Shown here piece by piece: positions 1-24,028 of a stretch of 64,000 nt of DNA; position 1 is the first letter of the stretch, and every line of letters begins with the position of its first letter. Location: NCBI GenBank assembly GCA_045634485.1, contig JAZRAJ010000091.1, positions 166-64,165 on the forward strand, in the 5' to 3' direction. This stretch comes from Eubacteriales bacterium. GTDB lineage: Bacteria > Bacillota > Clostridia > Oscillospirales > CAG-272. The notes beneath the pieces were generated by a model. The model saw only the letters and a program-made list of their open reading frames with translations. It had not been told where the DNA came from and made no database searches. The translations under genes were made by a program, and so were the position numbers.

Positions 1-810
1 AAAAAGGCTCATGTTATCCTTGGCGAGTATTTTAAATACTTAACTCAACAAGAGCTGATAAATAAAAATCCTATGCTGTCCACACCGATGATTAAGAAAA
101 GCAATTTCTATGCGATGCAGGACAAGGAAGATTTGTCGACGAGCGAAACGGTAACGATTTTTACGGCGGAAGAAATAGAAAAATTGAAGGCTGAGGCAAA
201 TAAACAATACAAGACAGGGAAGAAGCTTTACCGCCAAGCGGGAGCGTATATTTTGATGCTCAACACGGGACTTCGAGCTGGCGAGATGTTGGGCGTTTTG
301 AACCGAGATATTGACCTTGTGGGGCGAGTTCTGCATCTTCAAAGGGGAGTAAAGGTCGTGAACAAACGCAACGGTGTGGAGCTTTTAGACGGCTCAACCG
401 AGGTCAAGGTTGGAAAGCTCAAAAGTGCGACGAGTAAGAGAGATATTCCGCTTAATGATGTTGCAATTCAAATGATAAAGGAGTTGCGAGATGAGTTCTA
501 CTTCGGAGAGGACAGTCCACTGATTTGCGACGAAAACGGAAATTACACCAAACCCGACTTGTTCCGCAGAAGATACCACCGACTCCTCGACGGAGCAGGG
601 ATAGAAAGCAAGGGTCTGCACTCGCTTCGGCATACATTCGCAACGAATCTCGTCAACGGAGTGAGGCAACCCGACGGAACGGTTAAGGCTCTGACCGTAA
701 GACAAGTCGCAGACCTGCTCGGACACTCAACAACGCAGGTGACCGAGATGTACTACGTTAAGAAGGATATGAAAATGCTCGACGGCGTGACGAATGATTT
801 TTGCCTATAA
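1..810 (+). CDS. int: tyrosine integrase, C-terminal 269 aa (5' end lies left of the window); copy 1 of 3
   Basis: Frame 1 is open from base 1 (KKAHVILGEYFKYLTQQELINKNPML...). It is collinear with aa 138-406 of the complete copies at 12957-14177 and 22471-23691. Catalytic-domain motifs: TGLRAGE, HSLRHTFATN, LLGHS, EMYYV. Confidence 0.92.
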   Translation, partial: KKAHVILGEYFKYLTQQELINKNPMLSTPMIKKSNFYAMQDKEDLSTSETVTIFTAEEIEKLKAEANKQYKTGKKLYRQAGAYILMLNTGLRAGEMLGVLNRDIDLVGRVLHLQRGVKVVNKRNGVELLDGSTEVKVGKLKSATSKRDIPLNDVAIQMIKELRDEFYFGEDSPLICDENGNYTKPDLFRRRYHRLLDGAGIESKGLHSLRHTFATNLVNGVRQPDGTVKALTVRQVADLLGHSTTQVTEMYYVKKDMKMLDGVTNDFCL

Positions 811-957
811 TGACTCAAAAATTGCGTCGGAGTAAGCAAAGAAAAAGGCGGTTGCGTGATGCAATCGCCGTAAAAATTGATGCTTTTTTGCATAATTGGA
901 AATTAATATATCATCAATATTATGTATATGAATTTAAAGTTTTAAGAATAATTGAAT

Positions 958-1539
958 TTATGCAGCATTTTTAAATATATCTTTTTGAATAATTAAATTT
1001 TTTCTTAATCGCAACAAAATATCCGAACGCTCTTTTTCTGTATAATTGGTATCAACTTCAATATTATTTGCATGTGCTAAAGTTTGTGTATGGCTACATA
1101 AGCAGTCTATGAGTGAAGCAAGTTCATTTGTTGAAAATTGTATGCAAATCTTTTTTCTTGAAGATTTTTCGAGGTTGTCCATAGCGGTGATTAAATTATC
1201 AATTATATCGTTTGTTAAATTTTGTTCATTAACGGCTACGATATATGCATTAAGATGTTCTTTAAACGAGTCTATCTTTTTTTGCTTGGACTTGTTTACT
1301 AAATGTATGGTTATACCTGTTACAGCAATTGTTAGAGTGGCAAGAGCAAAAACTCCAGCAGCGATGATTGCGGCATTGTTAGAGCTTTTTGAGTCATTTG
1401 TGCTTGATGTTGTATCGAGATGTTTAATTATACGGTTTGAAGTAGCATCTTTGGCTAATCCTGTTATGTTAATTTTGCCTGCAATATAGTCGTTGTAGAT
1501 GTTGGTAGGTACTACTATATGTGGTTGTATAATGGGCAT
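958..1539 (-). CDS. hypothetical single-pass membrane protein (193 aa), island cargo
   Basis: ORF 958-1653, with the start moved to ATG 1539, which is preceded by an AAGGAGAA RBS. One hydrophobic helix (AAIIAAGVFALATLTIAVTGITIHLV). No family recognised. Confidence 0.6.
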   Translation of the reverse strand: MPIIQPHIVVPTNIYNDYIAGKINITGLAKDATSNRIIKHLDTTSSTNDSKSSNNAAIIAAGVFALATLTIAVTGITIHLVNKSKQKKIDSFKEHLNAYIVAVNEQNLTNDIIDNLITAMDNLEKSSRKKICIQFSTNELASLIDCLCSHTQTLAHANNIEVDTNYTEKERSDILLRLRKNLIIQKDIFKNAA

Positions 1540-1632
1540 ATTAATTTCTCCTTCTTGTTTGATTAAAAATTGATACTTTTTTGATGCTGTACTAAATGGA
1601 AATAGTGTCACGGTATAGCACCGAAAAGAAAA

Positions 1633-1806
1633 GTGAAATATTTTGCTTCGCAAAATGTGAAATCTTCGCTCTGCTCAGGTGAAATCACTCACTTCGTTCG
1701 TGGTGAAATGAAATCCACCCACTCGCCGTAAGGCGAATTTCACTGTCCGAAGGACAATTTCACCGCCGTTTGAGGCGATTTCACCCACCCGATAGGGTGG
1801 ATTTCG
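1633..1806. repeat. phased heptamer array: 4x GTGAAAT then 3x ATTTCAC (+ATTTCG), 20-24 bp period, mostly palindromic spacers
   Basis: GTGAAAT at 1633, 1657, 1679, 1703. ATTTCAC at 1737, 1757, 1778. ATTTCG at 1801. Spacer examples: ATTTTGC-TTC-GCAAAAT, TGTCC-GAA-GGACA, CGCC-GTTTGA-GGCG, CCACCC-GATA-GGGTGG. A paralogous array lies at 16571-16744. Confidence 0.85.
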
Positions 1807-1809
1807 TTG

Positions 1810-1843
1810 AAAAAAGCCCAACGCGATTGCGTTAGGCTTTTTT
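1810..1843. terminator. bidirectional hairpin terminator abutting the tRNA-fragment repeat
   Basis: A6-AGCCCAACGC-GATT-GCGTTAGGCT-T5. An identical copy lies at 16748-16781. Confidence 0.6.
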
Positions 1844-1845
1844 CT

Positions 1846-2340: not shown

Positions 2341-2448
2341 TTAATAACTCGGATTATATGACTTTATTCTATTGTATCATTTCAATTAGACACACCTATG
2401 TCTTACTGTTTTGATAAAATAAAAACATCAAAAAAGGAGGCAATTTTC

Positions 2449-3420
2449 ATGGAGTCAACGCGACAAGACAGAGCTCTTGAAATCTTCTTCCGCGCCTTGC
2501 GAGGAGAGGATATTGTTGTTAATGAATTAGCGAATGAATATGGTGTGTCAACTAAAAGTATATCAAGAAATATAAGTGATTTAAAATCATTTCTTGCCGA
2601 CCACAGAGAGCTTGTCGGAAATACCGAGCTTGAGTATTCATATAAGGATAAATGTTATAGATTATATATGGACGAGTTCCTATCCAACAAGGAGTTATTT
2701 GCGCTTGTTGAGGTAATGATTGGTGCAAGAGCTTTTTCAAAAATGGAGCTTTTGACATTGATTGATAAATTAAGAAACTTTACAACGGTTGATGATAGAA
2801 GTAAGCTTAACGAGCTTATAAGAAATGAGATATATCATTATCCCGAGGTGAAGCACGATTGCGAGAGTATTCAAGACAGTCTTTGGCAGATTGTGAATTG
2901 TATTAACGAGTGTAAGGAAATTACGATTGAATATTATCGCATGGATAGGCGGTGGAAAACTCATCGTATTTGTCCTGTATCTGTAATGTTTACAGATTAC
3001 TATTTTTACCTTATTGCATTTATGGCGGAGGGAAAAAAGGACAAGCCGTATTATTTTAGACTTGATCGCATTAAGAATGTTACCGAGCATAGAAAAAAGT
3101 ATTCGGTTGACGAGATTCCTGAGTTTGATGAGGGCTTACTTCGTAAGCGTAGTACGTTTATGTGGCAAGGTAAGCTACGAACAGTTCGTTTCGAATTTAG
3201 CGGGCCATCGGTTCAAGCGGTTCTTGATAAGCTTCCAACCGCAAGAATTATTGAGCGACTTGGAGATGGAAAATATCTTATTGAGGCTGAAACCTACGGC
3301 GACGGAATCAAGATGTGGCTGCTGAGTCAGGGTAGCTGGGTTAAGGTAGTAGCACCACAGGAATTTGTGGAGGAGATAAAAGAAGAAATTAATGAAATGA
3401 GTAGTTATTACATCGAATAA
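2449..3420 (+). CDS. HTH-WYL-WCX transcriptional regulator (BrxR/CapW/PafBC-like architecture)
   Basis: AAGGAGG RBS 7 nt before ATG 2449. N-terminal HTH (NELANEYGVSTKSISRNISDLKSF). WYL-domain signature (ITIEYYRMD...RICPVSVMFTDYYFYLIAF...PYYFRLDRIKNV). C-terminal WCX-like tail (KVVAPQEFVEEIKEEI). Confidence 0.85.
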   Translation: MESTRQDRALEIFFRALRGEDIVVNELANEYGVSTKSISRNISDLKSFLADHRELVGNTELEYSYKDKCYRLYMDEFLSNKELFALVEVMIGARAFSKMELLTLIDKLRNFTTVDDRSKLNELIRNEIYHYPEVKHDCESIQDSLWQIVNCINECKEITIEYYRMDRRWKTHRICPVSVMFTDYYFYLIAFMAEGKKDKPYYFRLDRIKNVTEHRKKYSVDEIPEFDEGLLRKRSTFMWQGKLRTVRFEFSGPSVQAVLDKLPTARIIERLGDGKYLIEAETYGDGIKMWLLSQGSWVKVVAPQEFVEEIKEEINEMSSYYIE

Positions 3421-3465: not shown

Positions 3466-5931
3466 ATGAAAGAAATCATATTGGCTAATGAAGTAAAAAA
3501 GATTCTCTCGTCATCCGAACAGAGAAAGCTTCGTTATGCCAGCGACTTAAACTGGTTAAATACATGGGAAAACTTATGGACAACAGACAGAATCCGTGTA
3601 GGCGTTGTCGGTGTTACGAGCAGCGGTAAATCAACTCTGATTAACGCTTTATTGGGCGACAATCTGTTGTCTGTTGCTGTTCGTCCTTCTTCCAGCCAAT
3701 TAGTGAGCTGTTCTTATGCAAAGGAACGCTCTGCTATAGTCTATTTCTTGGACGGCAAGAAAAAGAAAATCGGAGACAATGCACAGTTGAAAGATTCAAT
3801 CGTGCAGTATTCCGATGAAAGCTATAACAAGCGGAACGAAAAGCAGGTTGCCCAGCTTGAACTTTCTACGCCTAATTTTGACTTAGGCGAAGATGTTTTA
3901 TTGGTTGATAGCCCTGGCTTAGATGCAACCGGTTATGAAGCTCACGAAAAGCTGACCTTGGAAACGCTTCTTCCTACTGTCGATGTAGTCATCTTTGTTA
4001 CTACGGTCAAATCGGAAGTTGATAAGAAGATGAAGCAGACACTTGATACCATAGCAAAGTACAACTGCCCTGTGATGGTTGTTCAGAATATGCTTGATGC
4101 CGTTCGTCCGAGCGTTGATGGTAGAAAGAGTGCTGCCGACGTAGCTAAAGAGCGAATGAACCGAGTTCAATTAGCGGTAGAACAATCAAAGATAAAGAAT
4201 AAAAACGAAGTTAAAATCACTCAAATTTCCGCTGTTATGGCAATGCAATATCGTTGCCATAAAGAGCATAGCGAAGAAGAAACTCGTAATTTTAAGCGTT
4301 CCAGATATGAAACTTTTGTTGCCGGTGTAAAAGAATTGGTCGCATCTAAAAGACCGGAAATCGAAAAGCAGCGAGTGAAGACAATTTTGGAGCACATTGA
4401 GGAGCTTATTCGTCAAGAAGATAAGCGTACCCAAAATATCAGTACCAATATCCTTGTTGATAATACACTTTCTTCCGTATCCGAAAGTGTTACTGAAGCC
4501 TTGGACACTACATACGATGATATTCAAGGCGTTATTCAAGAATTACAGAGAATGTATGATAAATACTTCTCGGATAGCAACTCCACGAAAAAGAATAAGT
4601 CAACAGTTTCCTTTTTGGGGATTGCATCATCTCTATTCTCCTCCTCAAAGGATTCTCTTGATGAGGATGAAATCAAGGAAATCAAACGAGTAGTTAAGCT
4701 GTTTGAAACAAAGGTTGTCCAGAGTGTGCGTGGTTTCTCGACACAATGTTCAGCCGCAATCAAAAAATTAAATCTACCTACTCGTGATTTATGGAGTTAT
4801 AACGGACTTCCTCGTATGCCGGAAGTCGAAGTAAAAACCAAAACTGTAGAGCGCAGCAGAACGGTCAAGAAGAAAGGCTTCGGTCATACTCTCGGTAGAA
4901 TCTTTTCTTTGGGACTTTATAAAGGCACGGAAACAGAGCACTATACCGAAACTGTTGTTGACGATGAAGCAACACGGGAATCTGCCAAGCGTTATATTGA
5001 GCGACTTCAATTTGAATATGGCAAAACGCTCGAAGCTTGGCATACCAACGCTAAATCAACAGTTGCTTCTATACAGCAAGAAATCGACCTTCGTTTTGCA
5101 GCTATTCAAGAGAAAGAACAGCAAGTTATGGATGCTGCCGATTGGAAAGAAATCCGTGCGGCTCTTGAAAAGTACATGAGCGAATATGGTGGCATAAAGA
5201 CCCCTGTTGTACAAACGGAATCTACATCAAAAGAGCAACCACAAGAAACACAAGACAGCACCAAACTTATCAAGGTTTCTGCCCAAATTGCTCATTTACA
5301 TGATGCGGCTGAAAAATACCTTTTTGCCGTGCAGAGTTCCTCGTTTAATTACGCATTAGAAGCCAAAGAACGTAAAGGCTGTCCTGCTTTTGTAGTATCA
5401 AATAGCCCAGATAATTTAACGGACTTCCTTTATCGTTTCTACGGAATAAAAAAGAATGATTTCTCAAAGGAATCCATTCTACATCTTTCCGATGAGTTGA
5501 CCGTGGCTTGTTCCCCGACAGATGCTCAGTTGGAATCCTTGAAGCAACCGGCGACAGGCACGAACATTTTCCTGTTGATAAATGGCTTGCAGTTCCATAC
5601 CGAGTACGAAACAGCACTCCGTCATGCTGTTCAAGGGAACTTAAAAGATAATGATGCCCTGTTTTTCGTTATCCAAGATTTTGAAATATTGGCTAACGGA
5701 AATGCTATTACAGAGTGCATTAGAACCGTCCGGATGGAACAAGGTTCACACAAAGGCGTTGTTCTTATCAGCCATAAAAATCCCGTGTATAACATGGCTG
5801 TTATTCACGCTCAAACAACGGAAGGAAAACTCAAAGAAGAAACGATATTCTATAATTCTTTGACAACCAAGTTCCCATCATTGGTCGATGAAGTTGCAAA
5901 GAAACGTATAAACAACATATTGCGTACCTAA
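3466..5931 (+). CDS. dynamin-like GTPase A (821 aa) with an extra C-terminal alpha/beta-like domain
   Basis: G1 GVTSSGKSTLINALLG. G3 LLVDSPGLD. G4-like VVQNMLD. Long helical middle region. C-terminal ~220 aa unassigned. GAGGT RBS. Confidence 0.85.
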   Translation: MKEIILANEVKKILSSSEQRKLRYASDLNWLNTWENLWTTDRIRVGVVGVTSSGKSTLINALLGDNLLSVAVRPSSSQLVSCSYAKERSAIVYFLDGKKKKIGDNAQLKDSIVQYSDESYNKRNEKQVAQLELSTPNFDLGEDVLLVDSPGLDATGYEAHEKLTLETLLPTVDVVIFVTTVKSEVDKKMKQTLDTIAKYNCPVMVVQNMLDAVRPSVDGRKSAADVAKERMNRVQLAVEQSKIKNKNEVKITQISAVMAMQYRCHKEHSEEETRNFKRSRYETFVAGVKELVASKRPEIEKQRVKTILEHIEELIRQEDKRTQNISTNILVDNTLSSVSESVTEALDTTYDDIQGVIQELQRMYDKYFSDSNSTKKNKSTVSFLGIASSLFSSSKDSLDEDEIKEIKRVVKLFETKVVQSVRGFSTQCSAAIKKLNLPTRDLWSYNGLPRMPEVEVKTKTVERSRTVKKKGFGHTLGRIFSLGLYKGTETEHYTETVVDDEATRESAKRYIERLQFEYGKTLEAWHTNAKSTVASIQQEIDLRFAAIQEKEQQVMDAADWKEIRAALEKYMSEYGGIKTPVVQTESTSKEQPQETQDSTKLIKVSAQIAHLHDAAEKYLFAVQSSSFNYALEAKERKGCPAFVVSNSPDNLTDFLYRFYGIKKNDFSKESILHLSDELTVACSPTDAQLESLKQPATGTNIFLLINGLQFHTEYETALRHAVQGNLKDNDALFFVIQDFEILANGNAITECIRTVRMEQGSHKGVVLISHKNPVYNMAVIHAQTTEGKLKEETIFYNSLTTKFPSLVDEVAKKRINNILRT

Positions 5932-5954
5932 GAGGACGATGAAAGGAGATTGTC

Positions 5955-6860
5955 ATGCAATCTAAGGATATAGTAATGCAGGTTTCGGAAGAAACCGCTG
6001 AAGTAATGGAAGAAATATCAGAACAGCTTATGGAAGAATCTGATGCTCGTTTCGACGAAGTTGTGGAAGCCATCGAAGAAGCTGTAAAAAAAGTTGAAAG
6101 TCTCTATGCCGAGTTTACAGGCTATGCCGGTAATTCTAATAAGCAGCTAACATCAAACCAAGCGGAACTTATGGATAAGTTTGGTACTGTTTTGGATGCT
6201 ATTGGGGTGTTCAGAAAAGAAATTGGTGAACAAACAGTACAATCAAACGAAAAGGTTGATCGTTTGATTGTAATCATGGCTGATGTTCCCCAGCTCGTTC
6301 AAGCCGTTTCAAACAGCATCTCCGAATCCGCTGATGCGAGAGGCAAATTTGAAGCTACTCTTTTGGAAGATGTAAAGGGTCTTGCTCAAAGTCTTGTCGA
6401 ATTTCAGAAGCTTCAATCCGATGTTGTGGACAAGCTAAATGCTGATGACAGTCAAGAAAAGCTGATTTCTGCTCTAAATAAATTAACTGATATTGAAAAG
6501 GAAATTCTTCAAACCAAGGACGCTATCGGGAATGTTTCTGACACGCTTCGGAATTGTAGCACTCTTATCGAACAGCTTCTGTCCTCTGTGAAAGGCTTGC
6601 AGGAGAATGACGAAAAGATTCTTAATGTTGGTGAAGAAAACACCAAGAAGGCTGATGAGCTTGGAAAACAGACCGAGGAGACTTCAAAGCTACTCTTTGA
6701 AAAAATGGGCGATATATTGATCTATCTCGATACACTCTCCCATTCCGTTCAAACTATTTCGAAAAAGCAAAACGAACTCTGTGAAAAGCAAGCGGAGCTT
6801 GATAAAGATGTGAAATATTTGAAATTGCCATTCTTTAAAAGATGGTTTACGAAAGGATGA
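5955..6860 (+). CDS. acidic coiled-coil protein (301 aa) with a basic/aromatic C-terminal tail
   Basis: AAAGGAG RBS. E/D/Q/K-rich heptad-like sequence throughout. Ends in LKLPFFKRWFTKG. Its stop codon overlaps the next gene's start. Confidence 0.7.
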   Translation: MQSKDIVMQVSEETAEVMEEISEQLMEESDARFDEVVEAIEEAVKKVESLYAEFTGYAGNSNKQLTSNQAELMDKFGTVLDAIGVFRKEIGEQTVQSNEKVDRLIVIMADVPQLVQAVSNSISESADARGKFEATLLEDVKGLAQSLVEFQKLQSDVVDKLNADDSQEKLISALNKLTDIEKEILQTKDAIGNVSDTLRNCSTLIEQLLSSVKGLQENDEKILNVGEENTKKADELGKQTEETSKLLFEKMGDILIYLDTLSHSVQTISKKQNELCEKQAELDKDVKYLKLPFFKRWFTKG

Positions 6861-8704
6861 AGAAAATTATGGTAGACTATATTATAGGCGATTCAAGGTT
6901 GCTTGAATTGTTAGACAAATACTCTGCTGTTGTCGGTGAAGGAGCTAAGGCTTCCGACATTATCAGTAAATTGGCTCAGAATGTCCAAAACCCCGAACTC
7001 ATTGTGCCCGTGTTGGGTTCGCAAGGCATGGGAAAAAGCACTCTTATAAATGCTATCCTTGGTGCTAATATCCTTCCTAATGATGCAGATGAAACAACGT
7101 GTGTTCCTGTTGAAATCCGTTATGGCACAAACGAGAAGGCTGTGGTTTACTTCCAATCTGGAGAAACGGCAGAAATCGAACTCTCATGTGATTCGCTTCG
7201 TGAGTTCGTTGACAACAACGAAAACGACGGCAACGAAAAGTGTGTGTCTCACATTGCACTTGAAACGCCGAGCGAGTTACTTAAAACAGGTCTTGTCATT
7301 GTTGACCTTCCCGGTGTTGGCTCTTTGACACAGAATAACCACGAAACAACAATGAGATACATTCGCCAGTTGTGTACAGCAATTTTTGTTATCCCTACAG
7401 TACCCACAATCAGACGAAGTGAGGAAGTCTTTATTCGTGGTGCTTGGAGCAGTTTTTCTTCTGCTATTTTTGTTCAGAACAGATGGGATGACGAGACAGA
7501 CCAGGAAGTTAATGATTCTGTGGCTTTCAACTCTTTAGTATTAAATAACATCGCTAAAAACGCCAATACAACTTTCAACGGAAAGATTTGTGTGGTTAAT
7601 GCGTATAGAGCTATTCTAAGCAGATTACATAATGATTCCGCAGAGTGTGAGCGTTCTAATCTTCCGGAGCTTCTTACCGAGTTGGAAAACCTCGGTGAAA
7701 ATAGAATCAATCTGGAAACCGCCAATTTTAAGGCAAAAGTCGGTTCCTATATTGAGGCAGCCCAAGCTGCTATTATGCAGTATATTGCCGAAAGTCAAAT
7801 GAACGAAGAACAGCTCCGTGCTGAACGAGAGAGGATTTACGAGGAGTTTAATGCTGCTACTAACGAAATCCAGCAGCTTGTTGATGATGTTTTGGAGTGT
7901 GTAGAAGACGAAAAAAACAAAGCAGACATTTTCGCCGGAAAATTGGCTAAAGAATCTGCTGAAAGTCTTCGTGCCGACACTCACAAATTGATAGGCAATG
8001 GTATTGTTGATGGCGAGCAGTTGACGGAGGCGTTTTCTGACTATCAAGAGAAGTATCTTTTGGATGCGGTTGAGCAGCACTACGATTATATGAATACCAT
8101 GACCTACGAGTTAGGCAAAAAACTTGAAGTTTTGGCAGAAAAGATTTCACTTGAACGAGCATCTTCCTTTGAAGCTCAGAAGTTTGAAAACGGACAAGCT
8201 TTCAAGTTTGAGAAAGGGTTGGAGTTTGGTATTGACCTTGCTGGAGCCATTGGTGGTACATATACTGCTGCTGCAGTTGGTGGCATGGCGTGTTGGACTA
8301 GTGGCAAAATCGGTGCAGCTCTTGGTTCTGCTGGTGGACCTATTGGTACTGCAATAGGTATTGTGGCTGGTATTGCTGTAGGTGTTGTTGTTGGACTTAT
8401 AGGAAAGAAAACTAAGCATAGCATTACTGCTAAACGTGGCTCACAAGCAAAAAAAGCAATCGAGCCTTTCATCGAGGAATTTCAAGATAAAATCTATGTG
8501 TCTATTTCCTCAAACATTAACGCAGTTATGGAGAGCATCACGGATATTCTGCAATCCTATATAGAAGACCGCAGAGCCTACTATGAAGATATGATGCAGG
8601 CGAAAGAACGTGCTGCTGATGCAGACCATGAAAGCAAATTTGACGTTGCCGAGCTGAATGAGCATTACGCTTATCTTGAAAGCAAAAAGGAGGCTTTGAA
8701 ATGA
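6857..8704 (+). CDS. dynamin-like GTPase B (~615 aa) with a glycine-zipper membrane hairpin
   Basis: G1 GSQGMGKSTLINAILG. G3 VIVDLPGVGS. G4-like VQNRWDD. Hydrophobic Gly-rich stretch GAIGGTYTAAAVGG...GIVAGIAVGVVVGLIGKK (nt ~8238-8410). The start is taken as ATG 6857 (ATGA overlap with the upstream stop); 6842 or 6869 are possible. Confidence 0.85.
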   Translation: MKKIMVDYIIGDSRLLELLDKYSAVVGEGAKASDIISKLAQNVQNPELIVPVLGSQGMGKSTLINAILGANILPNDADETTCVPVEIRYGTNEKAVVYFQSGETAEIELSCDSLREFVDNNENDGNEKCVSHIALETPSELLKTGLVIVDLPGVGSLTQNNHETTMRYIRQLCTAIFVIPTVPTIRRSEEVFIRGAWSSFSSAIFVQNRWDDETDQEVNDSVAFNSLVLNNIAKNANTTFNGKICVVNAYRAILSRLHNDSAECERSNLPELLTELENLGENRINLETANFKAKVGSYIEAAQAAIMQYIAESQMNEEQLRAERERIYEEFNAATNEIQQLVDDVLECVEDEKNKADIFAGKLAKESAESLRADTHKLIGNGIVDGEQLTEAFSDYQEKYLLDAVEQHYDYMNTMTYELGKKLEVLAEKISLERASSFEAQKFENGQAFKFEKGLEFGIDLAGAIGGTYTAAAVGGMACWTSGKIGAALGSAGGPIGTAIGIVAGIAVGVVVGLIGKKTKHSITAKRGSQAKKAIEPFIEEFQDKIYVSISSNINAVMESITDILQSYIEDRRAYYEDMMQAKERAADADHESKFDVAELNEHYAYLESKKEALK

Positions 8705-10913: not shown

Positions 10914-10914
10914 T

Positions 10915-14177: not shown

Positions 14178-14405
14178 GGGGTTGCAGATTTTGTGAAAAT
14201 ATGATATAATGATCTTGTTTATCAAGAGTGTACGAAATAAAGCGAAAAATAAGAGTTTTGTGGTGTTTTATATAGAAAAAAGCAAAATGCAACCGGTAGT
14301 TGACACATTGAAAGCTGGCGGTTGGTAGTGTGCAAGTGCGATTTGTGCTATAATATAGGCACGATAAAGCGCAGGCTTTACGAATTTATCAAACGAGGTA
14401 TTTTT

Positions 14406-15206: not shown

Positions 15207-15232
15207 AATAAAGATTTTACGGAGATAGTTAT

Positions 15233-15766: not shown

Positions 15767-15840
15767 TTATAAATGTATTGAGTAAATTGGATATGATATA
15801 ATAATTGTGTTAGTGAATAGTTTAATGAGGTAGTTTATAC

Positions 15841-16446: not shown

Positions 16447-16570
16447 TTGATTTTATCGTAAATATGCATAAAAGGCTGACGAATTTTTAATCGTCAGCCT
16501 TGAATTTTTGATACTTTTTTGATGCTGTACTGTACGGAAATAGTTTCACGGTATAGCACCGAAAAGAAAA

Positions 16571-16744
16571 GTGAAATATTCGGCTTTGCCGAATGTGAAA
16601 TAATCCACTTCGTGAATTGTGAAATATTTCCCTTCGGTCGATGTGAAATGAAATTTGCCCACATTCGCGTCAGCGAATATTTCACATTTGCGGAGCAAAT
16701 ATTTCACAGCAAAGCTATTTCACTTGCCTAAAGGGCAAATTTCG
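16571..16744. repeat. phased heptamer array, second copy (island B integrase-proximal end)
   Basis: GTGAAAT at 16571, 16595, 16619, 16643 (exact 24-bp period). ATTTCAC at 16679, 16701, 16717. ATTTCG at 16739. Spacer examples: ATTCGGC-TTT-GCCGAAT, AATCCAC-TTC-GTGAATT, ATTTGC-GGA-GCAAAT, AGC-AAA-GCT, TTGCCT-AAA-GGGCAA. Confidence 0.85.
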
Positions 16745-16747
16745 TTG

Positions 16748-16781
16748 AAAAAAGCCCAACGCGATTGCGTTAGGCTTTTTT
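16748..16781. terminator. bidirectional hairpin terminator abutting the tRNA-fragment repeat
   Basis: Same sequence as 1810-1843. Confidence 0.6.
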
Positions 16782-16783
16782 CT

Positions 16784-16828
16784 TGGCAGGGGCGGGAGGA
16801 CTCGAACCCGCGACCCACGGTTTTGGAG
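16784..16828 (-). repeat. 45-bp direct repeat of the tRNA-Trp 3' part; att junction between island B and island A
   Basis: Identical to 1846-1890 and 23953-23997. Confidence 0.95.
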
Positions 16829-17000
16829 TGGCTTAAAAGTGCCGTGAAGCCTTGAAAATGCTCGCTTTTTTGCACGTTTCAACGCACTTTTCACACTAAA
16901 CCACGTGTCGTAATTGTGTCTGAAAATTTTTGATGCTTTTTTGATGATATGATAAAATTTCAGCTTACATATTAGCCGCTAACGTACTTTTGACGCTCCT
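16829..17000. repeat. conserved integrase-distal island arm (non-coding)
   Basis: Aligns with 1891-2061. Contains TTGATGC-N5-TTGATGA at 16930-16948. Confidence 0.85.
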
Positions 17001-17031
17001 CAAAATTTGGGGAGCTATAAACAAAGAAGAA
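17001..17031 (+). repeat. cargo-slot boundary repeat, left copy, island A
   Basis: CAAAATTTGGGGAGCTATAAACAAAGAAGAA. Confidence 0.8.
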
Positions 17032-17145: not shown

Positions 17146-17739
17146 ATGACAAAGACGGAAAAGTTAAATGATTTAATTAAATTAAGTAATGGATATCTTT
17201 ATATTGCCGATGCGGAGAAGCTTGGTATTTCTAAGGTTTATATTCGAGAATACGTTCTTGCTAACAATCTTGAACGTGTGGCGCATGGATTATATAAGTC
17301 TTCTGATGTTTGGACGGATGATCTCTATATTTTGACATTTAATAATAAAAAAGCGGTATATTCATTTGATACTGCTCTTATGTTAAATGGGCTAACCGAG
17401 CGAGAGCCATCGGAAATATTCGTCACTGTATCAAGATCATACAATGCTTCGCACTTGCGTAGTAAGGGTATTATTGTTAATTATGTTAAAGATGAATGGT
17501 TAGATTTAGGGCGAACTGTTGCTAAAACCGTCTATGGGAATGAAGTGTCGGTTTATGATATGGAGAGAACGATTTGCGATATTATTCGTGTGAGGGATAA
17601 AAAAGATCCGCAGATGTTTACCTATGCTATAAAAGAATACGCAAAAAGTGCAAATAAGAATCTCCCAAGACTTATGAAATATGCAAAGGAATTCGGCGTA
17701 GAAGCGGAATTGCGTAAATATATGGAGGTGTTGTTGTGA
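17146..17739 (+). CDS. abiEi: AbiEi-family antitoxin / transcriptional regulator (197 aa)
   Basis: N-terminal winged-helix-like LIKLSNGYLYIADAEKLGISKVYIREYVLANNLERVAHGLY. GTGA overlap with the downstream AbiEii gene. Size and order are typical of AbiE pairs. Confidence 0.8.
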   Translation: MTKTEKLNDLIKLSNGYLYIADAEKLGISKVYIREYVLANNLERVAHGLYKSSDVWTDDLYILTFNNKKAVYSFDTALMLNGLTEREPSEIFVTVSRSYNASHLRSKGIIVNYVKDEWLDLGRTVAKTVYGNEVSVYDMERTICDIIRVRDKKDPQMFTYAIKEYAKSANKNLPRLMKYAKEFGVEAELRKYMEVLL

Positions 17740-18599
17740 TTATAAAGACATCAAGACAACTCAAGGATAAGGTATCGAATCTATCGGGAAATGACAGCAA
17801 GAAAGCGCAGACATTGATAAGAAAATATATGATGGAACGCTTCCTCGCAAGAATATCCCATTCAAAGTATAAAAACAACTTCATCCTCAAGGGTGGAATG
17901 CTCGTTTCTGCGCTTGTAGGCGTAGAATCAAGGGCTACTATGGATATTGATACAACCGTAAGAATGTTGCCTTTAACAAAGGATAATGCAATTGAAGTGA
18001 TTGCCGAAATTATGAAAATAGATCTTGATGACGATATTTCCTATGAAATCAAAAAGGCTGAGGATATTATGGAAGAACACGACTATTCAGGCGTTCGTTT
18101 TACCATTTCGGTAACGCTTGAGAAGCTGCGTGATACCATTAAAATTGACATTTCCACCGGTGATGAAATAACGCCATCTGCTATTGAATTTTCTTATCCT
18201 ATGATGTTTGACGACGAAAGGATTAATATTTGGTCATATAATCTTGAAACTATGCTTGCAGAGAAGCTTGAAACTGTTATTGCAAGATCAACGCTTAATA
18301 CGAGGATGCGTGATTTTTACGATATACATATATTATGGTCAGAAAAAGCAAATATGATCAATATTGAAACGCTTCGTCGTGCAATTATCAATGTTGCTCG
18401 TAAGAGAGGAACTCTTGAACTCTTTGATAATATGGATGAAATTCTTGATGATATTGTGGAAAGCGATTATCTTCGTAATAATTGGAATAATTATAGAAAA
18501 GGCAGTTACTATGTTGGTGACCTTGAATGGGCGGATGTGCTTGAAATAACAGTTAATATACTAAAAAATGAGATTGGAAGCTTGAGCGTTAAGGCGTGA
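17736..18599 (+). CDS. abiEii: AbiEii/AbiGii-family nucleotidyltransferase toxin (287 aa)
   Basis: GTG start overlapping the upstream stop. FILKGGMLVSALVG...RATMDIDT nucleotidyltransferase motif. ETMLAEKLETV and FYDIHIL are typical of the DUF1814 family. Confidence 0.85.
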   Translation: MIIKTSRQLKDKVSNLSGNDSKKAQTLIRKYMMERFLARISHSKYKNNFILKGGMLVSALVGVESRATMDIDTTVRMLPLTKDNAIEVIAEIMKIDLDDDISYEIKKAEDIMEEHDYSGVRFTISVTLEKLRDTIKIDISTGDEITPSAIEFSYPMMFDDERINIWSYNLETMLAEKLETVIARSTLNTRMRDFYDIHILWSEKANMINIETLRRAIINVARKRGTLELFDNMDEILDDIVESDYLRNNWNNYRKGSYYVGDLEWADVLEITVNILKNEIGSLSVKA

Positions 18600-18640: not shown

Positions 18641-21600
18641 ATGTCTGAAACGGATAATAAAAAATCAATTATAGATAATATCACACTTAAAGAGCTGATA
18701 GAAAAATATGGATTGCCGATAGATGTGAAAAAATCGTGGTGGTTTGGCGATTACTATTTTCGTGCAGAAAAAATTCAGCATACAGGCGTTGTTGCGGGTA
18801 CAATTTTTAAAGATGGGAAAATACATGAGTCTAAAAGTTTTTCTCAAGGTGAGATTATGCAATTATTGACTCCTTCATCAATTGAAGAAAGTAAAAGTGC
18901 AAAAAAGAAATCTTATATATTCTTGCCTAATCCAAACAAATTGGATACCGATATTACGCATTATATCAAGGGAGAAACTAAACTTTTTGTTAAAAGTGGC
19001 AATTCAATCAAAGTTGCTATTTTTGACCATTTTAGAGAGAAAAATGATCAACTTCTCATATATGTGATTCCAGAAGGGGCAATAAATGTGAAATTCTATC
19101 CTTTCCCACAAAGTGAATTAGTATTTCCAAATAAGGATGATGCCAGAAGTAAAATTGATAAAGAAAGTCGTCGATTTGAAATTTCGCATTCTCGTAATAT
19201 TGTTTCTGCATTTAAGAAAAAACCTAAATCGCGTAAGCCTTCTGAAAATACATCTGATGAGTATGAATATGAACGTGGATATCATCAAAAAGTGGATAGT
19301 AAATTAGAGGATGATTTGCGCATTCCTGAAGAAAATAAACGTGTCGCTCAATACGATTTGGCTTATGCAGATGAAGAATTAAGAGAAGAAATTGTTTCTG
19401 CTCGTGAAAATAAATATATTGTTGACGATCATACTATAATTTCACACAAAATAAGAAAGGAAACTGCTGATTCTCGTATTCTTTCTGCACAAGATGAGAT
19501 ATTAAGAATACGAGGAATACGCAGTAAACCTTATTTTGCACGAATAGATTGTGGAGAAAGTATGCGAGATTTGCATACAGTTTATCTTGGAAATGATGAT
19601 ATTGATGGATATGTTGTTTCTTGGAAAAATGCTGAATACGGTAATGCATATTATCAATCTTCTGTGCTTCAAGGACGACAAGATATTGTTTTAGCTTTAA
19701 AACGTATTGTGGATATTACATATGGTGATTTCAAGGGATATGAAGATGAGATTTCATTATATGCCGATGGTGACATTTTTGAAAAAACAGAGAATGAAAT
19801 TGTTGAAGGAAAGACCGACGAACTTTTGAATAGATTGTTGCTCGAAAGTCGTGCGGATAAGCAAGTCCATGATATTATTAAAACCATACAAGGTGAGCAG
19901 TACGATATTATAACAGCGGATTTCAGAAAAAATGTAATAGTTAACGGATGCGCTGGTTCCGGAAAGACAATGATTATGTACCATCGCCTTTCCTATATGG
20001 CGTATAATTATCAATTATATCTTGGAAAAACACTTGACACTAATTTAGTATATATAATATCTCCGTCGCCGTTTTTTGATTCAAGTAATGATGAATTGTT
20101 AACAAAATTATCAATCGGTACAGTTTATCAAGCGCCATTTTCTAATTTTGTGGATAAACTTCTTGATTTATATTGTTCAAAAAAATCAATAATACCATTC
20201 TATGGATTAACGTCTTACTTGGATGCTCTTGGAGATAGTCCATCTGAATTTTTTAATACGAATGAGTTTAACTCGTTTACCGATGTTATTGAGGCGGTTG
20301 ATGAAAACACTTTGTTATATAAACAATGGGCACTTTCTTTGATAAATCAATTTTTAACGGCACAGAATTTCAAAAAAATTGATTTTGAAGTGATTGCAAA
20401 ATATGCAAATGAGGCTTCTACTTTTTTCTCTTCCTCGGATTATTATTATAATGAGTGTTTTGCAAATAAGAATAATGGTGAAACTAAATATTATTCAAAA
20501 CAAGCCATTGTTGGAATATCTATGGAAAATGTAATCGCTGCTTTAAATACGAAGCATGGAAAATCAAGTGCTATATACAAGCAAAGATTGAAGAAAATAA
20601 CCAAGTATCTTTCTATACTAAGATGTTGTTTATCATTAAAAACAAAGAAAACTTTAGGATCAGAAATTTCAACGGATATATCTGATTTTTGGGACTTGCT
20701 TGATAATACAAAAGTGTTTGAAAAAATGCTGTCAATTATCCTTGCGGAAAGATTGTTTGAATGTATATCCACTTCTGTAAATGTGGAAAGAGGATATATG
20801 CTAAAGTGTTTATATGCTTTTCAAAATACATATAGTAAAAATGAATCTGAAGTTGTAAAATTATATTTTCTACATTCTCTTAGTAAAAAATATGGTGCTA
20901 TTGTATCCGAAGATGCTTTAGTTTTTGTCGATGAATTTCAAAATTATTCTGCTTTCGAGTTGCAATGTGTAAAAGAAGCTTATGAACATCCCGTATTTAA
21001 CCTTTTCGGTGATTACGATCAGCGCATAGAGGAAAAGGGAGCAAACTTGAAAGCTCAATTGAAATCAATTTTAGTAGAACCTAATATATATAATATCAAT
21101 GTGAATTATCGTAATGCGAAACAAATTACAGAATATATTAATAGATGTGTACATAAAAACATGCAATCAATAGGAGTAGATGGATCGGTTATCGAAGTTG
21201 CGCTCGAAGATTGTGATTTTAAACTATCTGATAGAACTGCAATTATTTGCAAGGATATTAAAATGGCATTAACATTTATTAAGCGATATATAGATGCTAA
21301 GCTAATAAATAATTCTACTTCTACTAAAGAATTGGCTATGGATAAATATACATTAATTACTGTTGATGATTCAAAAGGACTTGAATTTGATACTGTGTAT
21401 GTACTAGATTATGGAATGTCAGATAACGAAAAATATGTTGCATATACTCGTGCATTAGATACGCTTATTGTTATTTCAGATGATTTAGAAGCAATAAAAA
21501 AATCTGAAGAGGAGGCAGAGAAAAAAAGAAGAGAGCAGGAACGGTTAACATTAGAAACACGAAAAAAAGAAGAAAATTTTCAAAAACATATTGTTGAGGA

Positions 21601-21874
21601 AAATGCTGAATATGAATTTGAAGAAGAAAAAATAAAAATTCGTGAAGAAGCTGAACGTAAACTACGTATGGAAATTGAACGTCAAGTTCGTGAAGAGATT
21701 GCACATGAAATTCGCGAAGAAATTGAACATCAACTAAGAGAAGAAGCAGATGTTGCTGAGAAGAGAAAAAAAGAATATAATCGAATGTGTAATGTTTGTC
21801 AATATTGTGGAGGACGTTTTAAGGGATTGCTCGTTAAGCGTTGCTCTGCTTGTGGTAAACGAAAAGATTATTAA
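18641..21874 (+). CDS. HelD-like UvrD-family (SF1) helicase with unassigned N-terminal domain, C-terminal E/K/R coiled coil and 4-Cys zinc ribbon (1077 aa)
   Basis: HelD-type segment KPYFARIDCGE...TVYLGNDDIDGYVVSWKNAEYGNAYYQS. Walker A GCAGSGKT (19946-19969). DEFQN Walker B. GLEFDTVYVL...YVAYTRALDTLIVI. Tail REEIAHEIREEIEHQLREE, then CNVCQYCGG...CSACGKR. Confidence 0.8.
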   Translation: MSETDNKKSIIDNITLKELIEKYGLPIDVKKSWWFGDYYFRAEKIQHTGVVAGTIFKDGKIHESKSFSQGEIMQLLTPSSIEESKSAKKKSYIFLPNPNKLDTDITHYIKGETKLFVKSGNSIKVAIFDHFREKNDQLLIYVIPEGAINVKFYPFPQSELVFPNKDDARSKIDKESRRFEISHSRNIVSAFKKKPKSRKPSENTSDEYEYERGYHQKVDSKLEDDLRIPEENKRVAQYDLAYADEELREEIVSARENKYIVDDHTIISHKIRKETADSRILSAQDEILRIRGIRSKPYFARIDCGESMRDLHTVYLGNDDIDGYVVSWKNAEYGNAYYQSSVLQGRQDIVLALKRIVDITYGDFKGYEDEISLYADGDIFEKTENEIVEGKTDELLNRLLLESRADKQVHDIIKTIQGEQYDIITADFRKNVIVNGCAGSGKTMIMYHRLSYMAYNYQLYLGKTLDTNLVYIISPSPFFDSSNDELLTKLSIGTVYQAPFSNFVDKLLDLYCSKKSIIPFYGLTSYLDALGDSPSEFFNTNEFNSFTDVIEAVDENTLLYKQWALSLINQFLTAQNFKKIDFEVIAKYANEASTFFSSSDYYYNECFANKNNGETKYYSKQAIVGISMENVIAALNTKHGKSSAIYKQRLKKITKYLSILRCCLSLKTKKTLGSEISTDISDFWDLLDNTKVFEKMLSIILAERLFECISTSVNVERGYMLKCLYAFQNTYSKNESEVVKLYFLHSLSKKYGAIVSEDALVFVDEFQNYSAFELQCVKEAYEHPVFNLFGDYDQRIEEKGANLKAQLKSILVEPNIYNINVNYRNAKQITEYINRCVHKNMQSIGVDGSVIEVALEDCDFKLSDRTAIICKDIKMALTFIKRYIDAKLINNSTSTKELAMDKYTLITVDDSKGLEFDTVYVLDYGMSDNEKYVAYTRALDTLIVISDDLEAIKKSEEEAEKKRREQERLTLETRKKEENFQKHIVEENAEYEFEEEKIKIREEAERKLRMEIERQVREEIAHEIREEIEHQLREEADVAEKRKKEYNRMCNVCQYCGGRFKGLLVKRCSACGKRKDY

Positions 21875-21909: not shown

Positions 21910-21931
21910 TTTGGCTAATTGGTTTACTTCT

Positions 21932-21965
21932 CCAAATTTGGGGCGCAATAAACAAAGAAAAAGAA
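21932..21965 (+). repeat. cargo-slot boundary repeat, right copy, island A
   Basis: CCAAATTTGGGGCGCAATAAACAAAGAAAAAGAA. Confidence 0.8.
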
Positions 21966-22007
21966 ATTTTCAAAATCAAGCGTTTTTTAGATGTGCAAAA
22001 CAATAGT

Positions 22008-22067
22008 GAGCATCAGAAGAATTTACGGAGTTTATCCGTGTTCTTTCGATGCTCATTTTTTGTTTTT
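22008..22067 (+). terminator. long-stem intrinsic terminator (conserved backbone element)
   Basis: GAGCATC-AGAAGAA-TTT-ACGGA-GTTTA-TCCGT-G-TTCTTTC-GATGCTC, followed by ATTTTTTGTTTTT. Confidence 0.65.
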
Positions 22068-22470
22068 GAGAGTGGAGAATAATTCTAATTTCGCTCATTT
22101 ATGGGCAATTTTGAGCCGAAAATCTCCGCCGTATTTTTTTGCAGGAATAAGCAAAGTCACCTTTCGGCGACTTTTGCGTTTTACATCGGTCGGCAACGCC
22201 GACCGAAAAGGGCGAAAAAGGCAGATGCTGCAAGGGCTTTTGAGGTTCGGGCGTGGGTGATTTTTGTTTTTTGAATTAGGGACAATTTTTCGAGTTTGTA
22301 GAGCCATTGGGGACAAGATTGCGAAAAAGTCCCATATTACAAGGAAAGTTGCGGCGACTTTCGTGCGCATTTAAAATAATTGTGTCTTGTATGATAACTT
22401 TTTCAAAATCGCTGGATATTCGAAAAATCTTGTGGTATTGTTGTAGTAAAAAAGTAAAGGAGGTTTAATT

Positions 22471-23691
22471 ATGGCAACTAAAAAACTATTAACTAACGGA
22501 AATGCATTCAAGCGGACTGACGGTCGGTGGGGCGGTACTGTTTGGTTTATGGATGAGTCGGGCGAGCGTAAGCGAAAGAGTTTTTCGGGTACGACCAAGC
22601 AAGAGGTAAACAAGAAAATGACCGCCTATATTGAAGATTTTAACAATGAAATTGAAAACTTAATCGAGGCGAACAAGACGCTCAAAGAGAGTATGACGAA
22701 TTGGTTGCAAGTTTTCAAATTTCCGTCGATCGAGCGCACAACATACGATAGGTATGAGTGTACTGCAATCAATCAAATATACCCATTGATTGGGGAGAAA
22801 ACGGTCGGAAATATTTCTTCTGCCGACATTAAAAAAGTCCTCAATCATTGGATGAATGAGGGCTATGCCTATACAACGGTTAAAAAGGCGCACGTTATTC
22901 TCGGCGAGTATTTTAAATACTTGACTCAACAAGAGCTGATAAATAAAAATCCTATGCTATCCGCGCCGATGATTAAAAAGAGTAATTTTTATGCGATTCA
23001 AGAAAAGGAAGAATTGCCGACAGCCGAAAGCATTACGATTTTTACATCGGAAGAAATAGAAAAATTAAAGGCGGAAGCAGCGAAATCATACGCAACCGGA
23101 AAGAAGCTTTACCGCCAAGCAGGGGCGTATATTCTTATGCTCAACACGGGCTTGCGAGCTGGCGAGATGTTGGGCGTTTTGAACGCAGATATTGACATTG
23201 AGAGGCGAGTTTTACATCTTCAAAGGGGAGTAAAGGTTGTAAACAAACGCAACGGTGTGGAGCTTATTGACGGCTCTGTTGAGGTTAAGGTCGGCAAGCT
23301 AAAAAGTGCGACGAGCAAACGAGATATTCCGCTAAATGATGTCGCAATTCAAATGATAAAGGAGTTGCGAGAGGAGTTTTATTTCGGCGAGGATAGTCCG
23401 CTGATTTGCGACGAGAATGGAAATTACACCAAACCCGACGTGCTCAGACGGAGATTCCACCGACTTCTCGACGGAGCGGGGATAGAGAGTAGGGGTCTGC
23501 ACGCGCTACGCCATACCTTTGCGACCAACCTCGTCAACGGAGTAAGGCAACCTGACGGAACGATTAAGGCTCTGACCGTCAGACAAGTCGCCGACCTGCT
23601 CGGACACTCAACAACGCAGGTGACCGAGATGTATTATGTGAAAAAGGATACAAGTATGCTCACTGGCATCACTAATGACTTCTGCCTATAA
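22471..23691 (+). CDS. int: tyrosine integrase with N-terminal arm-binding domain (406 aa); copy 3 of 3, adjacent to the intact tRNA
   Basis: AAGGAGG RBS. Same motifs as copy 2. The stop codon is 261 bp from the tRNA-Trp 3' end. Confidence 0.93.
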   Translation: MATKKLLTNGNAFKRTDGRWGGTVWFMDESGERKRKSFSGTTKQEVNKKMTAYIEDFNNEIENLIEANKTLKESMTNWLQVFKFPSIERTTYDRYECTAINQIYPLIGEKTVGNISSADIKKVLNHWMNEGYAYTTVKKAHVILGEYFKYLTQQELINKNPMLSAPMIKKSNFYAIQEKEELPTAESITIFTSEEIEKLKAEAAKSYATGKKLYRQAGAYILMLNTGLRAGEMLGVLNADIDIERRVLHLQRGVKVVNKRNGVELIDGSVEVKVGKLKSATSKRDIPLNDVAIQMIKELREEFYFGEDSPLICDENGNYTKPDVLRRRFHRLLDGAGIESRGLHALRHTFATNLVNGVRQPDGTIKALTVRQVADLLGHSTTQVTEMYYVKKDTSMLTGITNDFCL

Positions 23692-23914
23692 TGACTCAAA
23701 AATTGCGTCGGAGTAAGCAAAGAAAAAGGTGACCGCAGAAAACGAAAATCTGCGGTCTCCTTGATGCTCTTTTGACGCTCATGATACTTTTTTGATGCTG
23801 TACTGTACGGAAATAGTGGCACACAATGTGATAAATGGCACGATTGTGCTTTCGTGTTGATTGAGAAAACGGTTGAAAAAGTAGATAGAAAACCGCTTTT
23901 GTACAGAAAAACAC

Positions 23915-23948
23915 AGAAAAAAAGAAAACCGAAGCCTTTCGACTTCGG
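23915..23948 (-). terminator. intrinsic terminator of tRNA-Trp, supplied by island A sequence
   Basis: Minus strand reads CCGAAG-TCGAAAGG-CTTCGG, followed by TTTTCTTTTTTT, starting 4 nt after the CCA end. Confidence 0.7.
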
Positions 23949-23952
23949 TTAT

Positions 23953-24028
23953 TGGCAGGGGCGGGAGGACTCGAACCCGCGACCCACGGTTTTGGAGACC
24001 GGTACTCTACCAACTGAGCTACACCCCT
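23953..24028 (-). tRNA. trnW: tRNA-Trp (anticodon CCA), 76 nt with encoded CCA
   Basis: Reverse complement is AGGGGTGTAGCTCAGTTGGTAGAGTACCGGTCTCCAAAACCGTGGGTCGCGGGTTCGAGTCCTCCCGCCCCTGCCA. Acceptor stem AGGGGTG/CGCCCCT. Anticodon loop CU-CCA-AA. T-loop TTCGAGT. Discriminator G. Confidence 0.93.

Follow-up and report, generated by a model that had tools for sequence, protein, structure and literature searches.

A tandem array of related integrase islands at the tRNA-Trp gene of an Oscillospirales bacterium, with variable cargo between conserved backbone boundaries

Tandem accretion of mobile elements, together with the occurrence of integrase-less remnants among them, is established for integrative and conjugative elements (ICEs), integrative and mobilisable elements (IMEs) and cis-mobilisable elements (CIMEs), for example ICESt1/CIME of Streptococcus thermophilus and IME_Sag2603_tRNAlys (PMC5704250). 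The integrases of such functional tandems are 'generally distantly related' (PMC5704250). Similarly, the tycheposons of Prochlorococcus can lie side by side, separated by just a partial tRNA (bioRxiv 10.1101/2020.12.28.424599). Tandem islands at a tRNA gene are in themselves an ordinary phenomenon. Here we describe an array of at least three closely related integrase islands at the tRNA-Trp gene (trnW) of an Eubacteriales bacterium (Oscillospirales, CAG-272), contained in a stretch of 64,000 nt (contig JAZRAJ010000091.1, positions 166 to 64,165), which in the following we will call the window. What is new here is the island family itself, its architecture with two cargo slots bounded by copies of a conserved motif (M), the swapping of cargo, neighbouring islands and arm modules around an integrase that stays the same, and the location of the structured motif Gut-1 in the arms of the islands.

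The islands of this family resemble ICE/IME/CIME arrays in that integration is site-specific and targets a gene's 3' end, stacked elements are set apart by direct repeats, some att-bounded remnants within arrays lack an integrase, and excision singly or as composites is potentially open to them. They differ in that the stacked integrases are ~90% identical in amino acids, in their hosts and target (gut Oscillospirales, tRNA-Trp), and in the lack of transfer functions: conjugation or type IV secretion genes were not found in the window islands, and no relaxase or mobilisation domain in any open reading frame (ORF) of the window, while an oriT is not recognisable from sequence alone. With tycheposons they have in common cargo elements with tRNA-specific tyrosine recombinases, defensive or adaptive cargo and arrays that build genomic islands; tycheposons, however, carry primase/helicase replication modules or modules like those of phage-inducible chromosomal islands (PICIs), none of which is present in the window islands, and as far as the comparisons went the integrase lineage appears unrelated. 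A further parallel is offered by the defence hotspots of P2/P4-like prophages and satellites and by chromosomally integrated defence elements, where a conserved backbone flanks a hypervariable anti-phage slot that is swapped between near-identical elements (PMC10201445). By contrast, the window islands have no phage backbone, possess two slots plus a variable arm module, and belong to a family in which regulators, efflux genes and metabolic genes are found among the cargo as well.

The sole tRNA gene of the window is an intact tRNA-Trp(CCA), identified with ARAGORN at 23953-24028 on the minus strand and preceded by a promoter-like site (24069-24041, minus strand). Its terminal 45-mer, TGGCAGGGGCGGGAGGACTCGAACCCGCGACCCACGGTTTTGGAG, which corresponds to tRNA-Trp positions 32-76, opening with the first anticodon-loop base (CTCCAAA) and closing with CCA, is present in three copies with 0 mismatches, where 0 would be expected in shuffled sequence. 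All three are on the minus strand: one is part of the intact tRNA (23953-23997), a second marks the junction of islands 2 and 1 (16784-16828) and a third that of islands 3 and 2 (1846-1890). Because this core is identical to tRNA-Trp 32-76, integration regenerates the tRNA gene. The direct repeats thus consist of the 3' part of a tRNA whose intact copy stands at one end of the array, as in tRNA-targeting islands generally. Island 1, the tRNA-proximal one, measures 7.1 kb and island 2 14.9 kb. Island 3 is incomplete, since the window start interrupts its integrase and the distal end of the array lies outside the window; three islands are therefore a minimum. A first-pass annotation of the window, made from its letters alone, had reported the three perfect repeats and a more AT-rich accessory block, and both observations hold: the GC content is 38.1% in positions 1-23952 (35.2% in island 1) versus 44.6% in the flank (24029-64000).

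Each island contains one tyrosine integrase on the plus strand, and the three genes are colinear and transcribed toward the tRNA. IntA of island 1 (22471-23691, 406 aa) was identified with Pfam and by alignment. IntB of island 2 (12957-14177, 406 aa) was delimited by alignment, the listed ORF beginning at 12810 and the homologous start (MATKKLL) at 12957. IntC of island 3 (<1-810) is represented by the 3' 269 of 406 codons, as judged by its alignment to IntA and IntB. Pairwise identities amount to 89-92% at the protein and 85-86% at the DNA level. The earlier statement that every interval bears one integrase in the same orientation is thereby borne out, although not the nearly identical length claimed for them, as IntC is cut by the window start. 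IntA and IntB differ by 105 synonymous and 35 non-synonymous codon changes, and the integrases are therefore intact, long-diverged and under purifying selection. In the integrase family tree IntA, IntB and IntC form one clade, in which IntB and IntC are sisters.

The integrases comprise a Phage_integrase domain (Pfam E 6.6e-18) and a SAM-like domain, and the best solved relative of IntA is the integrase of Tn1549 (6EN0, E 6e-7). Each of the three has R229, H344-x-x-R347, H379 and Y388/389 without change. Following the known R-H-R-H-Y motif, we take these to be the catalytic residues. The combination of a SAM-like core-binding and a catalytic domain, and the phased double repeats, which occupy either arm at a set distance from the core (see below), are features in common with integrases of the Lambda/Tn916/Tn1549 type. 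Unlike these, the island integrase has no arm-binding domain recognised by Pfam, no Xis was found with it, and its identity to phage integrases is at most 27% (50,697 phage records).

Alignments of the junctions, combined with a comparison with relatives, revealed a common backbone. It begins with the core and a left arm of ~200 bp that contains a double repeat (DR) and one copy of M, followed by cargo slot 1; it continues with a second M, a conserved non-coding stretch of ~550 nt, the integrase and a third M located 3 nt past the stop codon; and it ends with cargo slot 2, a DR in the right arm, a variable core-proximal segment with a terminator, and the next core. Slot 1 accordingly extends from the left-arm M to the pre-integrase M, and slot 2 from the post-integrase M to the right-arm repeat. 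Slot 2 is empty in island 1, while cargo fills the distance between integrase and att copy in the other two islands (~2.6 kb for IntB, ~1 kb for IntC).

Motif M is 34 nt long, with the form CTCAAAATTTGGGGCGCAATAAACAAAGAAAAAG in the window and the family consensus CTCAAAATTTGCGCCGCATAAACAAAGAAA. Its six window copies are all on the plus strand and all within islands: in the left arms of island 2 (2060-2090) and island 1 (16998-17031), upstream of the integrase in island 2 (12382-12415) and island 1 (21930-21963), and downstream of it in island 1 (23695-23728) and island 3 (814-847), the last two being identical. Homology between islands 1 and 2 breaks off and restarts exactly at M copies, resuming for example at 12382-12415. 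Across related loci M is always found on the integrase strand and takes one of three positions: ~25 nt past the stop codon of the integrase gene, ~110 nt ahead of the start of that gene, or inside the left arm at a depth of 160-260 bp. It could be a protein-binding site, a cassette boundary or the mere edge of the backbone. A role as hairpin or terminator was considered and rejected, as the stem is not kept across the family and a T-run is lacking; as to a possible mimicry of the att core, M has CTCCAAA alone in common with it, in the opposite orientation. Nor does this organisation correspond to an integron, which consists of IntI, attI and promoterless cassettes bounded by attC: promoters belonging to the island cargo are present, M is conserved in sequence, in contrast to the variable palindromes of attC type, and the integron integrase model scores 21.8 bits on the island integrase against a cut-off of 265.

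The DR has the form TGATGCT-N4-TGATGCT and is confined, within the window, to the five arms, every copy being on the plus strand. It occurs at 1993-2010 in the left arm of island 2 (1891-2090) and at 16931-16948 in the left arm of island 1 (16829-17031), and comparison of repeats located it in the right arms of island 3 (1571-1588, TGATACTTTTTTGATGCT), island 2 (16509-16526) and island 1 (23782-23799). The last of these lies 171 bp from the core, close to the family mode of 166. Across the family, 44 of 65 cores have a DR ~166 bp before them and 22 of 60 have one ~94 bp behind them, and the copies are distributed unequally over the strands (112 to 16). The DRs are putative arm-type sites of the integrase.

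Outside the integrases, the ends of the islands can likewise be aligned. Positions 1789-2022 and 16727-16960 are 88% identical, and positions 1570-1663 and 16508-16601 are 90% identical; a block of 41 nt starting at 1571, 16509 and 23782 (90-95% identity) is the only right-arm part that island 1 shares with islands 2 and 3. Of the homologous non-coding ends reported initially, the blocks themselves are thus recovered, at 88-95% in a quantitative alignment of the backbones (next to 85-86% for the integrase DNA), while the right arm of island 1 has just these 41 nt in common with the others. Each island, as had also been proposed, supplies a terminator of its own. An intrinsic terminator follows directly after the intact tRNA (23950-23927, minus strand), and predicted bidirectional terminators of the type A6-hairpin-T6 abut att copy 3 (1810-1844) and att copy 2 (16748-16782).

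Comparison with related genomes at trnW had been suggested as a check, vertical conservation of the whole block without att-bounded variation being what would speak against integration. The variation that we observed is bounded by att copies and by the backbone, contrary to such conservation. Scaffold_713 of the ENA assembly ERZ28593640 represents a related species with the same trnW-metF-metH site, the flank of which is 76.7% identical to the window at the DNA level. Its merged sequence of 36.5 kb contains four perfect copies of the 45-nt core, ordered as an island of 12.5 kb, an integrase-less remnant of 0.78 kb, an island of 14.9 kb and the intact tRNA, and reaches the distal host flank, which has its own terminator. 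It matches the window in the backbone only (integrases, arms and pre-integrase region), and no cargo is held in common. Related species thus differ in the content of the array at the same site. Besides this locus, a metagenome scan with the flanking MTHFR yielded a best match of 85% in amino acids, and tRNA-Trp stood beside MTHFR in 0 of 80 loci.

A second line of evidence is provided by one integrase protein, P0136, which is identical in nine contigs from different samples and is combined there with differing cargo, neighbours and arm modules. Its slot 1 holds either a restriction-modification set of Dam, IceA and N6-N4 methylase genes or a set of AEP-DEAD-PLD, Schlafen-AlbA2, Macro and RNase_T genes, and homology between the contigs begins exactly at M beside the differing slot-1 cargo. 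The island downstream carries either DUF1016 and a helix-turn-helix (HTH) gene or a 310-aa recombinase with a giant leucine-rich repeat (LRR) protein, and the core-proximal arm contains either a Gut-1 pair or an array of ATTCATT/AATGAAT repeats. Swapping of cargo on an unchanged integrase is directly visible in these contigs. As the identical integrase lies beside different islands, movement or exchange of whole islands is required as well.

The tRNA-Trp link is a property of the family as a whole. A scan with one genome per species returned 207 relatives, from which 77 loci with 79 full-length integrases were fetched; the hosts are nearly all gut Oscillospiraceae, Acutalibacteraceae, Ruminococcus and unclassified Clostridia. 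A tRNA-Trp or its 45-nt fragment lies downstream, in the same relative orientation, of 52 of the 79 full-length integrases (the distance being 184-410 bp for 23 of them and 0.9-9 kb for the other 29), and the remaining ones, without a downstream core, are mostly cut by contig ends. Arrays are recurrent: at least two integrases occur in 11 of the 77 loci and at least two cores in 11 loci, with 14 att-bounded segments of 1-10.8 kb, including 1-kb ones without integrase. Integrases residing in the same genome often cluster, but in other genomes they often do not, as in L038, L039, L045 and L052, where they are not sisters. Relaxase or NikA-like genes are present in a few, distant members. These data define a family of cargo carriers that is widespread in gut Oscillospirales and has apparently not been described before. 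Its members are very small, with an integrase as their sole mobility gene; they accumulate at a single tRNA gene, and anti-phage genes, among others, are exchanged between them where fixed boundaries of the backbone lie.

We regard the locus as the product of tandem site-specific accretion of one island family at trnW, accompanied by modular exchange of cargo at conserved backbone boundaries, and assign this reading a probability of roughly 0.85. An incoming element would recombine at a core where a related island already resides. Given the identity of all cores, excision of single islands or of composites would be possible, and cargo, as well as the core-proximal arm segment, would be exchanged between islands at the conserved backbone boundaries. 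According to the usual accretion model the tRNA-proximal element is the newest, so that island 1, which also has the lowest GC content, may have arrived last. Candidate routes from cell to cell are mobilisation, given that some relatives have relaxases, and helper-dependent packaging. The first-pass annotation had proposed either successive integrations or duplication followed by cargo swapping; the tandem stacking of one family at trnW is supported, whereas the two routes are not fully separable.

Several observations weigh against accretion with cargo exchange. Exact look-ups of the flanking MTHFR (with two start choices), Met_synt_B12 and IntA gave no match, and without a same-species genome for comparison no empty site, excised circle or same-species polymorphism was seen. 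Pfam did not find an arm-binding domain in the N-terminal 75 aa of the integrase, and the search for an excisionase or a conserved small ORF in front of the integrase gene was negative, no frame being kept across six aligned islands. The right-arm DR of islands 2 and 3 lies 275 bp from the core instead of ~166, and cargo displaces the post-integrase M, which could impair recombination. Finally, a single clade of three integrases is also what would be expected from local duplication. Indeed, the array might have arisen mainly in place, if unequal recombination between cores duplicated one island and the copies then diverged and had their cargo replaced homologously, with no repeated integration from outside. 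The sister relationship of IntB and IntC, the frequent clustering within genomes elsewhere and the directly observed replacement of cargo at backbone boundaries are all in line with such a history. However, the divergence of 14% in integrase DNA, which is mostly synonymous, excludes a recent duplication, and any duplication would have to be old, yet the cores are perfect; moreover, co-resident integrases are not sisters in the four loci named above, and an identical integrase lies beside different islands in different samples. We consider duplication in place unlikely, though it deserves to be taken seriously.

Considerably less probable is that the islands are fixed, vertically inherited and immobile remnants and the repeats ancient scars. 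Excisionase, transfer and replication genes were indeed not found in the islands, arm spacing is changed in islands 2 and 3, and integrase-less remnants occur in relatives; against this stand three intact integrases under purifying selection, the perfect cores, the wholly different array content at the same site of a related species, and the occurrence of one integrase protein in nine contigs with different contexts. Small, integrase-bearing and defence-carrying elements at a tRNA might also bring to mind degraded prophages or phage satellites (PICI- or P4-like), the more so as the Gut-1 pair occurs in viral contigs too, once directly upstream of a large terminase gene. But Pfam, PADLOC and NCBIfam revealed no capsid, terminase, primase/replicase, repressor-antirepressor or packaging gene in the three islands, and next to the low identity to phage integrases noted above, just 2 family loci were found among 2.9 million viral contigs, so that we judge a phage origin to be quite improbable. 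An assembly artefact, lastly, would be suggested by the window beginning within an integrase, where assemblers break on repeats, and by the many family contigs that are just 1-3 kb long. The units, however, diverge by ~14% in their integrases and have unrelated cargo and distinct arms, and the same architecture appears in independent assemblies, which makes this explanation barely credible; the stacking of islands itself explains the assembly breaks at the trnW locus.

The core-proximal arm segments of islands 2 and 3 each contain a convergent pair of Gut-1 motifs. When described in 2010, Gut-1 was known from human-gut metagenome contigs only and was proposed as a small RNA (sRNA; Weinberg et al. 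2010, PMC2864571). According to Rfam, the pair of island 3 (1619-1809) consists of a plus-strand copy at 1619-1690 (32.8 bits) and a minus-strand copy at 1732-1809 (72.4 bits), and that of island 2 (16569-16747) of a plus-strand copy at 16569-16654 (42.8 bits) and a minus-strand copy at 16674-16747 (60.3 bits). With a gathering score of 50 for RF01706, the minus-strand copies pass and their plus-strand partners fall below. The minus-strand copies agree with the description in forming three short hairpins separated by GUGAAAU; whereas Gut-1 was described as a free-standing sRNA candidate, it is here one half of a convergent pair in the arm of a mobile element. In the complete module, four GTGAAAT units precede an inverted series of three or four ATTTCAC units, with short hairpins between the units. 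Spacer sequences vary while their pairing is kept, with 253 Watson-Crick pairs in 46 distinct spacers, and each of the two strands folds much more stably than shuffled sequences, with z values of -6.9 and -8.4. Counts of G·T versus A·C, by which the strands might be told apart, are small (5 versus 3). The commonest loops on the GTGAAAT strand are TTC and TGC, which read GAA and GCA on the opposite strand, and a single-stranded DNA form is therefore possible.

In every context considered in this work, a bidirectional terminator and an att core come after the Gut-1 pair. Within the island family, it is restricted to the closest sublineage: as a general component of the backbone Gut-1 was rejected, for none was present in 157 loci (77 integrase and 80 MTHFR-flank loci, ~1.9 Mb). 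Viral contigs were searched with a loose pattern, which gave mostly noise (2 of 12 tested loci were real), and with a stricter one, which gave 11 loci. The module abuts tRNA-Asn-like or tRNA-Val-like 3' fragments in the viral contigs L233 (250-430), L282, L279 (837-1000) and L283, follows a large serine recombinase gene in L278, and immediately precedes a gene for a large terminase in L169 (4998-5180); further loci with the pair are L292 and L285/L286. These loci provide Gut-1 with its first genomic context, that of an att-adjacent module of integrative elements. The 0.78-kb remnant of scaffold_713 (merged L285/L286, 14007-14786) is composed of a left arm, M, an N-terminal stub of a Fic gene and a Gut-1 pair. 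ATTCATT repeats followed by inverted AATGAAT repeats take the place of the Gut-1 pair in L288 (6200-6415), L289 (1730-1945) and L077 (~5780-5950).

Candidate roles of Gut-1 include an insulator at the element edge, a stabiliser of 3' untranslated regions, or a cis site for helper packaging, replication or transfer machinery. As a speculation that we think considerably more likely wrong than right, the core-proximal arm segment might be a swappable 'handle', being either a Gut-1 pair or an ATTCATT/AATGAAT array. Gut-1 would then be no free sRNA but a cis-acting structured element of mobile-element ends, in the form of DNA, single-stranded DNA or an untranslated RNA tail, either recognised in trans by helper packaging, replication or transfer machinery or serving as a barrier to transcription or RNA decay at the element edge, while M would mark the boundaries of cargo-exchange cassettes. 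If true, this would account for the spread from strain to strain of islands that have an integrase only.

Cargo in the window is on the plus strand, apart from one ORF of island 3. Slot 1 of island 1 begins with the antitoxin AbiEi (17146-17739; PADLOC E 1.6e-65) and the nucleotidyltransferase AbiEii (17736-18599; PADLOC E 1.4e-96, Pfam AbiEii E 3e-41), whose genes adjoin with a 4-nt overlap and constitute a predicted AbiE pair, a system of the type IV toxin-antitoxin or abortive infection kind. It is followed by a HelD/UvrD-like superfamily 1 (SF1) helicase of 1077 aa (18641-21874), in which domain searches distinguished a HelD-like N-terminal region, an SF1 helicase core, a long coiled coil rich in Glu and Arg, and a Cys-rich tail with a CxxC-CxxC motif at the C-terminus. 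Possibly it belongs, as a third component, to a defence system linked to AbiE. Slot 1 of island 2 opens with an HTH-WYL-WCX regulator (2398-3420, from domain searches). The cargo block behind it (3466-12357), delimited with ORFs, Pfam and PADLOC, encodes three dynamin-like GTPases with Dynamin_N domains (3466-5931, 6842-8704 and 8701-10500), a coiled-coil protein (5955-6860, from ORF analysis) and small listed ORFs (10497-10913, 10888-11247 and 11776-12357). Against the models of the Eleos system the three Dynamin_N proteins give partial and weak matches to LeoA/LeoBC (E 1e-10 to 7e-22), and the described layout of Eleos has two genes, in contrast to the three GTPases and the WYL regulator of island 2.

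Slot 2 of island 2 (14178-16507), between IntB and the right arm, contains according to domain searches an HTH-XRE membrane protein (14406-15206), a DUF3267 zincin-like protein (15233-15766) and an S-adenosylmethionine-dependent methyltransferase (15841-16446), and closes with a predicted terminator (16472-16501). In slot 2 of island 3, an ORF of 231 aa on the minus strand (958-1653) was taken from the ORF list and had no family match in domain searches. The initial description of the array as a defence hotspot is therefore sustained in part: AbiE has strong matches and the WYL and dynamin-like block is a plausible candidate, while the remaining window cargo, and much of that of the family, has no recognisable link to defence. 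Of the window cargo, AbiE alone recurs in the 77 related loci (52-58% aa identity), where it resides in slot 2. The 108 cargo proteins of bounded islands in the family comprise defence-related ones (AbiE, PDC-S04/S09, AriA, mad, HEPN/NTase) and regulators (MerR, AraC, Rrf2), and further family cargo includes Fic, MatE, BlaR1 and a pyridoxal phosphate (PLP) enzyme. For hard-to-culture gut bacteria, trnW is thus a predictable place to mine for new defence systems.

Between slot 1 and the integrase of island 2 lies a further conserved unit (12451-12604, plus strand). A perfect sigma-70-type promoter, TTGACA-17-TGnTATAAT (12451-12479), drives a highly conserved ~117-nt unit whose end is formed by an intrinsic terminator, and downstream of it are covarying hairpins and the invariant sequence CATCGGTCGGCAACGCCGACCG. 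The unit also occurs in L285 (~9500-9700), L286, L287 and L288, while island 1 retains its terminator part alone (22001-22067). It has no match in Rfam, and possible identities are an sRNA or an attenuator for the integrase gene.

Some minor features of the relatives and of the window may be added. Segments without integrase but bounded by att lie inside the array of L047 (1194-2211 and 6915-7931) and have the look of CIME-type remnants. A second tyrosine recombinase of 310 aa is situated just inside the left arm in L286 (1742-2674) and L289 (2315-3247), where it adjoins an LRR protein of 1,585-1,997 aa. In L014 (~9200-9540), and upstream of the core in L003, L013, L031, L069 and L072, the segment that leads from the arm repeat to the core contains tRNA-like T-arm/acceptor fragments or a structured insert of ~200 nt, which opens with the first 18 nt of the core. 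Such sequences could have been left behind by other att sites or by another RNA gene. Finally, the core-genome portion of the window contains a lysine riboswitch (RF00168, 83.4 bits) at 46026-46200 on the minus strand, which is unrelated to the islands.

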